This document shows, piece after piece, positions 27,408 to 27,522 of a stretch of 64,000 nt of DNA (positions are counted from its first letter, which is position 1; each line of letters begins with the position of its first letter). The notes beneath the pieces are model-generated. The model worked only from the letters and a program-made list of their open reading frames with translations, did not search any database and had not been told where the DNA came from. Location of the stretch: the NCBI RefSeq assembly GCF_013315695.1, contig NZ_CP054353.1, one strand, 5' to 3'. This DNA is from Escherichia coli. GTDB taxonomy: Bacteria; Pseudomonadota; Gammaproteobacteria; Enterobacterales; Enterobacteriaceae. The translations under genes were made by a program, and so were the position numbers.

Positions 27408-27522
27408 TGAAATTAATGAGGATATGTCAGGGATATTCAGTTATAACGAACCTGCATCGCGAAATGAATTTCGCAATGAAATAAGGGGGATTAATATCCC
27501 CCGCTATTGGTTAATTCTGTTC
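27408..27522 (-). promoter_or_regulatory. Intergenic region with two perfect palindromes (candidate terminator/operator)
   Basis: GGGGGAT-taat-ATCCCCC and GCGAAAT-ga-ATTTCGC between the TetR stop and the adaptor start. Confidence 0.4.

Follow-up and report, generated by a model that had tools for sequence, protein, structure and literature searches.

In Campylobacter jejuni the TetR-family regulator gene cmeR lies upstream of the cmeABC efflux operon in the same orientation, and both a promoter and an inverted-repeat operator for CmeR are located within the cmeR-cmeA gap. The rplL-rpoB attenuator and the rpsU-dnaG terminator set the ratio of upstream to downstream expression by partial termination within an operon, and the stem-loops of the ompA 5' untranslated region, of papBA and of the malE-malF REP element stabilise or process the messages in which they are found. 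Here we analyzed a stretch of 64,000 nucleotides of Escherichia coli DNA (assembly GCF_013315695.1, contig NZ_CP054353.1; hereafter the window), in which the gap between eefR, a TetR-family repressor gene, and eefA, the gene for the adaptor of an efflux pump, carries three perfect palindromes. These palindromes are conserved in structure rather than in sequence in all 33 distinct gaps that we compared. We consider it probable that the gap is transcribed within one mRNA from an EefR-repressed promoter, and that the three hairpins act as RNA and not as DNA operators.

The locus is the eefRABCD accessory operon, encoded on the minus strand between sapF and fabI and described in two published studies (Microb Genom 2026, PMC12817139; Virulence 2025, PMC12482432). 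The island is present in 2043 of 5426 complete E. coli genomes and encodes the TetR regulator, a periplasmic adaptor, a resistance-nodulation-division (RND) pump, an outer-membrane factor and a pump of the major facilitator superfamily. It represents a seventh RND efflux system, is found in the E. coli phylogroups most tied to infection, and its mutational derepression leads to multidrug resistance. As in cmeR-cmeABC, the TetR gene is located upstream of the RND operon and co-directional with it, with a palindrome in the gap; unlike in the Campylobacter system, the promoter and the operator lie upstream of the regulator gene, and a single mRNA runs across the gap. An earlier note on this DNA, made from the sequence alone, had remarked on the regulator-first, co-directional layout, which is correct and has already been published for eefRABCD.

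The boundaries of the gap depend on the starts chosen for the two genes. The longest open reading frame (ORF) of eefA begins at an ATG at 27407, and this start is wrong: the RefSeq annotation, the lipoprotein signal MKYIATSVVAMLLLSGC, and tblastn alignments that begin from residue 1 in about 30 related loci all place the start at the ATG at 27374. The true gap is therefore 148 bp long (27375-27522) and not 115 bp as the earlier note had it; the palindromes were correctly located there, and the length was in error because the longest-ORF start had been used for eefA. A 384-residue version of EefA persists in many database entries. Similarly, eefR starts at 28089 and not at the longest-ORF start of 28188; EefR homologs are 186-191 residues long, and the EefR operator falls between these two positions, which fits the start at 28089. 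The corrected starts remove an error that had misled the first reading of this locus. The gap, its elements and the two flanking genes are as follows.

27523..28089, minus strand: eefR, TetR-family repressor of 188 amino acids (RefSeq coding sequence of the identical strain; NCBIfam TetR-type matches).
27485..27502 (extended stem 27480-27508), minus strand: hairpin 1 (HP1, palindrome 1), GGGGGAU-AUUA-AUCCCCC, from the terminator scan.
27475..27484, minus strand: U-rich tract UUAUUUCAUU after HP1, running into the 5' arm of hairpin 2.
27455..27478 (core 27459-27474), minus strand: hairpin 2 (HP2, palindrome 2), CAUUGCGAAAU-UC-AUUUCGCGAUG, a conserved sense-strand RNA hairpin.
27401..27422, minus strand: hairpin 3 (HP3, palindrome 3), UCCUCAUU-AAUUUC-AAUGAGGA, a sense-strand RNA hairpin, likewise conserved, just before the ribosome-binding region of eefA.
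27375..27400, minus strand: sequence-conserved block GGGUAUUUCUCACCCUGGAGAAAAUA, which holds the eefA Shine-Dalgarno sequence GGAG (27381-27384).
26253..27374, minus strand: eefA, periplasmic adaptor lipoprotein of 373 amino acids (RefSeq coding sequence; MexA/AcrA-type adaptor matches).

We scanned exhaustively for perfect inverted repeats with stems of at least 7 bp and loops of 0-8 bases. Two of the palindromes in the gap, GGGGGAT-taat-ATCCCCC at 27485-27502 and GCGAAAT-ga-ATTTCGC at 27459-27474 (plus strand), had been reported in the earlier note and are indeed present and perfect. The third, TCCTCATT-gaaatt-AATGAGGA at 27401-27422, is equally perfect and was missed there; it is held by the 33 bases that the note had counted as eefA coding sequence. 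The second palindrome extends to arms of 11 bp that include one G.U pair on the sense strand. A default repeat finder reported no inverted repeats; its minimum arm length is 12 bases, and the arms here are shorter. Across the window such repeats occur at a background rate of 0.10 per 148 bp, and among 5000 shuffles of the gap none contained three and 12 contained two. The palindromes in the gap are not due to chance. When folded on the sense strand, the whole gap reaches -45.6 kcal/mol (z = -4.4), and HP1 and HP2 on their own reach -13.9 kcal/mol (z = -3.0) and -10.9 kcal/mol (z = -3.6), respectively.

In order to examine conservation, we gathered a comparative set consisting of the window and 36 related loci from 11 genera by alignment of EefR. 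The eefA gene lies directly downstream of eefR in 35 loci, and the gap measures about 129-155 bp in nearly all of them. The 33 distinct gaps, folded singly, share a common layout: HP1, HP2, HP3 and the conserved Shine-Dalgarno block. Arm sequences change across genera and their pairing is kept. The arms of HP3, for example, read CCTCATT/AATGAGG in E. coli, CCCTGCTA/TAGCAGGG in Raoultella, CCCTGTTAA/TTAACAGGG in Enterobacter and CCTCGC/GCGAGG in Kluyvera. Within Escherichia, HP2 of E. albertii carries a compensated change from G-C to A-U, and several single changes give G.U pairs.

HP2 was recovered by RNAalifold on an unbiased MAFFT alignment, with 9 pairs, several of which show double substitutions; neither this result nor the per-sequence folds are fitted to the structure. 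MAFFT misregisters HP1 and HP3, whose loops vary in length, and we used two covariance models (R1 and R2) together with a register analysis of our own instead. In the covariance-model alignments, which are fitted to the structure and so favour it, the whole structure has a covariation score of 0.385 versus 0.196 in shuffles, none of 500 shuffles reaches the observed score, and all slid controls score lower; 95% of the HP2 cells are paired, and 6 of its 9 pairs show compensatory changes. Realignment of HP3 with a dedicated model, to which the same bias applies, gives 97.4% paired cells versus 87.2% in shuffles (0 of 500 reach this value), with double changes in 7 of 8 pairs and 35 such cells compared to 6.7 in shuffles; slid controls are 37-60% paired. 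An independent register anchored on the outermost pair of HP3 gives 95% versus 80%.

A palindrome in duplex DNA is strand-symmetric, whereas an RNA helix tolerates G.U pairs on the transcribed strand only. We therefore compared the two strands of each hairpin in fixed alignment windows from 29 distinct sequences. The sense strand of HP2 is the more stable one in 29 of 29, by 3.1 kcal/mol on average, and that of HP3 in 20 sequences versus 9 with the opposite preference (p = 0.01); HP1 is strand-symmetric in stability, as terminators are. With each hairpin folded on both strands, HP2 has 40 G.U pairs on the sense strand and 4 on the antisense strand. The eefR-eefA junction was previously amplified from cDNA by reverse transcription PCR (RT-PCR), which means that transcription reads through the gap (PMC12482432). 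Taken together, the strand bias and the published read-through indicate that HP2 and HP3 form in the eef mRNA. The comparison shows that the gap is under selection for RNA structure in about a dozen genera.

The first hairpin has features of an intrinsic terminator. The stem of HP1 has 7 bp, 5 of them GC, closes a loop of 4 and starts 20 nucleotides after the TAA stop codon of eefR. A counterpart hairpin occupies the same site in 33 of 33 distinct gaps with differing stem sequences, and a U-run follows most of them, reading UUUUUGU, UUUUUUC or similar in most other genera. A terminator score of the d'Aubenton-Carafa type is 17.8 for HP1 in the window; by the same formula d exceeds 0 for HP2 in 0 of 33 gaps and for HP3 in 0 of 33. 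Deletion of eefR was reported to raise expression of eefA-D 27- to 83-fold, with eefA itself rising 83-fold (PMC12482432). No conserved sigma-70 promoter was found in the gap across 15 representative loci from the 11 genera, and the scan of the window found no promoter-like site on the coding strand within the gap. Since cDNA spans the junction, eefA rises 83-fold from an upstream promoter and the gap has no conserved promoter of its own, HP1 must be leaky. It is best read as a leaky intrinsic terminator that would separate regulator from pump expression within one transcript. The suggestion in the earlier note that palindrome 1 could be a terminator or attenuator is thus supported by the stem with its U-run and by the retention of the site in every distinct gap, with the leakiness coming from the published RT-PCR.

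HP1 resembles the rplL-rpoB and rpsU-dnaG elements in that a GC-rich hairpin with a U-run lies between co-transcribed genes and would let part of the transcripts continue. It differs from them in that the upstream gene is the repressor of the operon itself, so that the pump genes would be buffered. HP2 and HP3, like the elements of ompA, papBA and malE-malF, are simple stem-loops on the flanks of A/U-rich linkers, in a part of a polycistronic message that is not translated, and may have a comparable role in eef; unlike the malE-malF REP, they are single-copy and specific to eef. HP1 would count among the ordinary intrinsic terminators found within operons, and HP2 and HP3 among structured mRNA leaders. 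Judging from their architecture, HP2 and HP3 are most likely elements of the eefA leader that affect stability, processing or translation context. Directly behind HP3, the columns ..CGTTCACCCTGGA/GAAAA.. of the ribosome-binding block are nearly invariant across genera. The resemblance of this block to consensus sites (the BaeR box, the marbox and CsrA GGA motifs) was judged unconvincing.

The way in which these elements would work together can be sketched as follows. Transcription from the EefR-repressed promoter in front of eefR would yield one mRNA that crosses the gap, and HP1 with its U-run would end a fraction of the transcripts after eefR. Under basal autoregulatory transcription, which sustains EefR, even less transcript would then enter the pump genes, and the pump would be buffered; strong derepressed transcription would read through HP1. 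If the message is cleaved in the U/A-rich linkers, HP2 and HP3 could guard the eefABCD segment on its 5' side and the eefR segment on its 3' side, and HP3 might present the ribosome-binding block located directly behind it. We found no published description of the gap hairpins, and the only experimental use of the gap DNA was as a negative control. Published work treats the gap as inert DNA; the analysis presented here points to three mutable elements by which regulator and pump could be uncoupled within one transcript.

Several observations, in addition to the fitted alignments mentioned above, weigh against this reading. The U-run behind HP1 is interrupted in E. coli (7 U in 10) and degenerate in E. 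asburiae, Phytobacter, Cedecea and one metagenome-assembled genome, the terminator score of HP1 is positive in only 14 of 33 gaps, and the published RT-PCR demonstrates some read-through and not termination. The gain in accessibility that the hairpins give to the ribosome-binding site is a weak trend (0.53 versus 0.47). The competitor excess in the published binding assay discussed below was only 1-2x, which leaves room for a weak EefR site in the gap. Finally, Klebsiella aerogenes has one GC-rich hairpin without a U-run in place of HP1 and HP2, and one Klebsiella sp. with a gap of 42 bp has no hairpins; the elements are therefore dispensable in some lineages. The combination of HP3 and the ribosome-binding block is retained most widely, being present in K. 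aerogenes and Kosakonia as well.

Among the alternatives, the one that survives best is that the three hairpins form a regulated riboregulator, i.e. a conditional attenuator, a target of a small RNA (sRNA) or protein, or a sensor of a ligand or of ribosome stalling, which would gate the pump after initiation and independently of EefR. We regard this as unlikely. It draws on the strong purifying selection on structure across genera, on the sequence-conserved block that adjoins the ribosome-binding site, and on the fact that the inducer of this cryptic pump is not known. Additionally, the two published studies, one of them PMC12482432, disagree on drug export by EefABC, and their constructs differ in whether they include the native region upstream of eefA. 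This disagreement hints at a role of the leader, although a construct that had simply lost the ribosome-binding site would be a trivial alternative. In a narrower form of the proposal, to which we assign a similarly low probability, HP2, HP3 and the ribosome-binding block would constitute a riboregulatory leader that responds to an RNA-binding protein, an sRNA, or translation or antibiotic stress and gates EefABC and EefD independently of EefR; if true, it could explain the silence of the pump in the laboratory and the opposite phenotypes obtained with and without the native leader.

The structural evidence speaks against a regulated device. No alternative pairing is conserved, and in most genera, including E. 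coli, we found no upstream antiterminator partner for the 3' arm of HP1. The hairpins are plain stems of 7-10 bp with variable loops, and none of the loops or bulges in the tables of hairpins across genera is visibly conserved as a binding pocket would be. The 5' arm of HP3 was considered as an anti-Shine-Dalgarno sequence and rejected, because its duplex (-3.2 kcal/mol) is no better than that of shuffled arms (-3.6 kcal/mol). A leader peptide was likewise rejected: an ATG at the 3' end of HP2 opens ORFs of 6-8 codons in some genera, is followed directly by a stop codon in E. albertii (ATG TAG), and is missing in Kluyvera. The gap thus shows none of the three marks of a regulated attenuator, as we found neither a conserved antiterminator nor a conserved leader ORF nor anti-Shine-Dalgarno pairing by HP3. 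No Rfam family matched the gap at its gathering threshold, the best hit being sraA on the opposite strand (24.1 bits versus a threshold of 56, E = 0.2).

The earlier note had proposed that palindrome 2 has the size and symmetry of a TetR-family operator. In its full form this alternative holds that palindrome 2, and perhaps palindrome 3, is a DNA operator for EefR or another factor and controls a pump promoter inside the gap; we think it very improbable. The dyad symmetry and size of palindrome 2 (16 bp, extendable to 24 bp) do suit TetR operators. However, the operator of EefR has been defined experimentally elsewhere: in an electrophoretic mobility shift assay (EMSA), EefR binds an 18-bp palindrome, TGAGAACGATCATTCTCA (TGAGAA-N6-TTCTCA), between fabI and eefR, and the shift is abolished by deletion of this palindrome or by a single-base change (PMC12482432). 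The same study found no second EefR site in a genome-wide motif search and showed that a PeefR-gfp reporter is repressed by EefR (PMC12482432). In the window the corresponding elements are:

28142..28169, minus strand: eefR promoter-like site TTTCCA-16-TATAAT (10 of 12 in a consensus scan), directly upstream of the operator.
28115..28132, minus strand: experimentally defined EefR operator, reading TGAGAGCGATCATTCTCA, a pattern match one base off the published TGAGAACGATCATTCTCA.

The published assay also included DNA of the gap itself. The primers of its "nonspecific" probe, eefA-gel-F (ACAGAATTAACCAATAGCGG) and eefA-gel-R (TATTTTCTCCAGGGTGAGAAA), are given in the study (PMC12482432) and map to 27520 and 27375 of the window. 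The nonspecific probe thus covers the whole gap between eefR and eefA, the three palindromes included. This probe did not compete for EefR, whereas the cold specific probe did (PMC12482432).

Comparison across loci leads in the same direction. In each of the 37 loci the pattern TGAGAA-N6-TTCTCA occurs with 0-1 mismatch at a distance of 19-29 nucleotides in front of the eefR start; it was not found in the gap of any of these loci outside this E. coli lineage. The helix-turn-helix region of EefR is nearly invariant across the orthologous loci. Palindromes 1, 2 and 3 do not match the established EefR motif. The EefR operator resembles them in being a short perfect palindrome of the same operon, bound by its TetR regulator; it differs in lying upstream of eefR, in being unrelated to them in sequence, and in being conserved in sequence and not just in pairing, whereas the arms of HP2 and HP3 switch sequence and retain their pairing. 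The G.U asymmetry between strands would have no meaning in duplex DNA, the gap holds no conserved promoter on which an operator could act, and the 83-fold derepression of eefA upon eefR deletion runs through the upstream promoter. The proposal that palindrome 2 is a TetR-family operator thus does not hold up.

Apart from the low competitor excess, the operator alternative can call on one sequence within the gap. On the minus strand, TGAGGAGGGTATTTCTCA at 27389-27406 departs from the EefR operator pattern by one mismatch; HP3 lies on one side of this copy and the Shine-Dalgarno sequence of eefA on the other. Neither the remaining Escherichia loci nor any other genus examined has the copy, which is probably a chance match. 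In this lineage the near-match also lets UUUCUC pair with the Shine-Dalgarno GAGAAA.

The upstream operator carries a variant base of its own in the window, at 28127, where TGAGAG replaces TGAGAA. The 62-bp stretch around it has an exact match in 1 of 1891 E. coli genomes (MSB1_4I), and the operator base is its sole difference from an O157 strain. Because published point mutations of the palindrome abolish EefR binding, the pump in this strain may be partly derepressed through the variant base.

A further alternative, that the hairpins are a functionless by-product such as remnants of REP/ERIC-like elements or of the horizontal acquisition of the island, can point to the accessory nature of the island, to mobile DNA that lands in the gap (an ERIC-like insertion in one locus and an IS1 in HP2 of another, both described below) and to lineages without the hairpins, and we give it very little credence, as the gap is single-copy and the same layout and operon position in 11 genera, the compensatory substitutions and the sense-strand G.U bias are unlike decaying repeats. 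Dispersed repeats of the REP, BIME and ERIC types were rejected as candidates: the gap sequence occurs at a median of one place per E. coli genome, and models R1 and R2 found no match outside the eef gap in the window and 80 loci (about 570 kb), so that the elements are not a repeat of the REP/ERIC type. The window contains no extra copies of palindromes 1 or 2 beyond chance.

Two loci carry insertions within the gap. In Escherichia sp. MOD1-EC7003 (L003:3568-3690) an insertion of 124 bp lies between the eefR stop codon and HP1, with HP1 through HP3 intact; its cores read ..CACCCCAGTCACTTACT.. and ..TAAGCTCCAGGGGATTCAC.., and we take it to be ERIC/IRU-like. In E. coli razor3 (L084:3638-4470) an IS1 element sits in HP2 at about window position 27466 and cuts the pump genes off from the eefR promoter.

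The neighborhood of eefR homologs differs in other genera. In K. aerogenes (L082:3001-3720) an eefR homolog with 59% identity lies directly upstream of eefA; the literature describes eefABC in this species as lacking eefR. The gap there is 106 bp long and contains a 9-bp GC-rich hairpin, TCAGGTCAG-CGGA-CTGACCTGA, with no U-run, followed by HP3. A search with the EefA protein aimed at Klebsiella loci returned E. coli sequences only. In Kosakonia, Winslowiella, Erwinia, Pantoea and Lonsdalea (L009, L017, L031, L032, L067, L068 and others) the EefR homolog is followed immediately by a membrane-transporter-like ORF and not by eefA, and Brenneria and Serratia marcescens have an eefA-like adaptor upstream, encoded on the opposite strand. 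From these other neighbors we conclude that the structured gap is specific to the Escherichia-Enterobacter-Kluyvera-Raoultella group.

Further features of the window lie outside the gap. Next to eefA the operon continues with the pump gene:

23146..26253, minus strand: eefB, RND permease of 1035 amino acids.

Another terminator-like hairpin, TGGCGAC-AACAA-GTCGCTG plus CCTTTCTGAT (28274-28292, minus strand), occurs between fabI and eefR, some 100 bp upstream of the promoter of eefR. The RefSeq annotation of the identical strain gives yciW, downstream of fabI (about 29499-30610 of the window), as a pseudogene with a frameshift.
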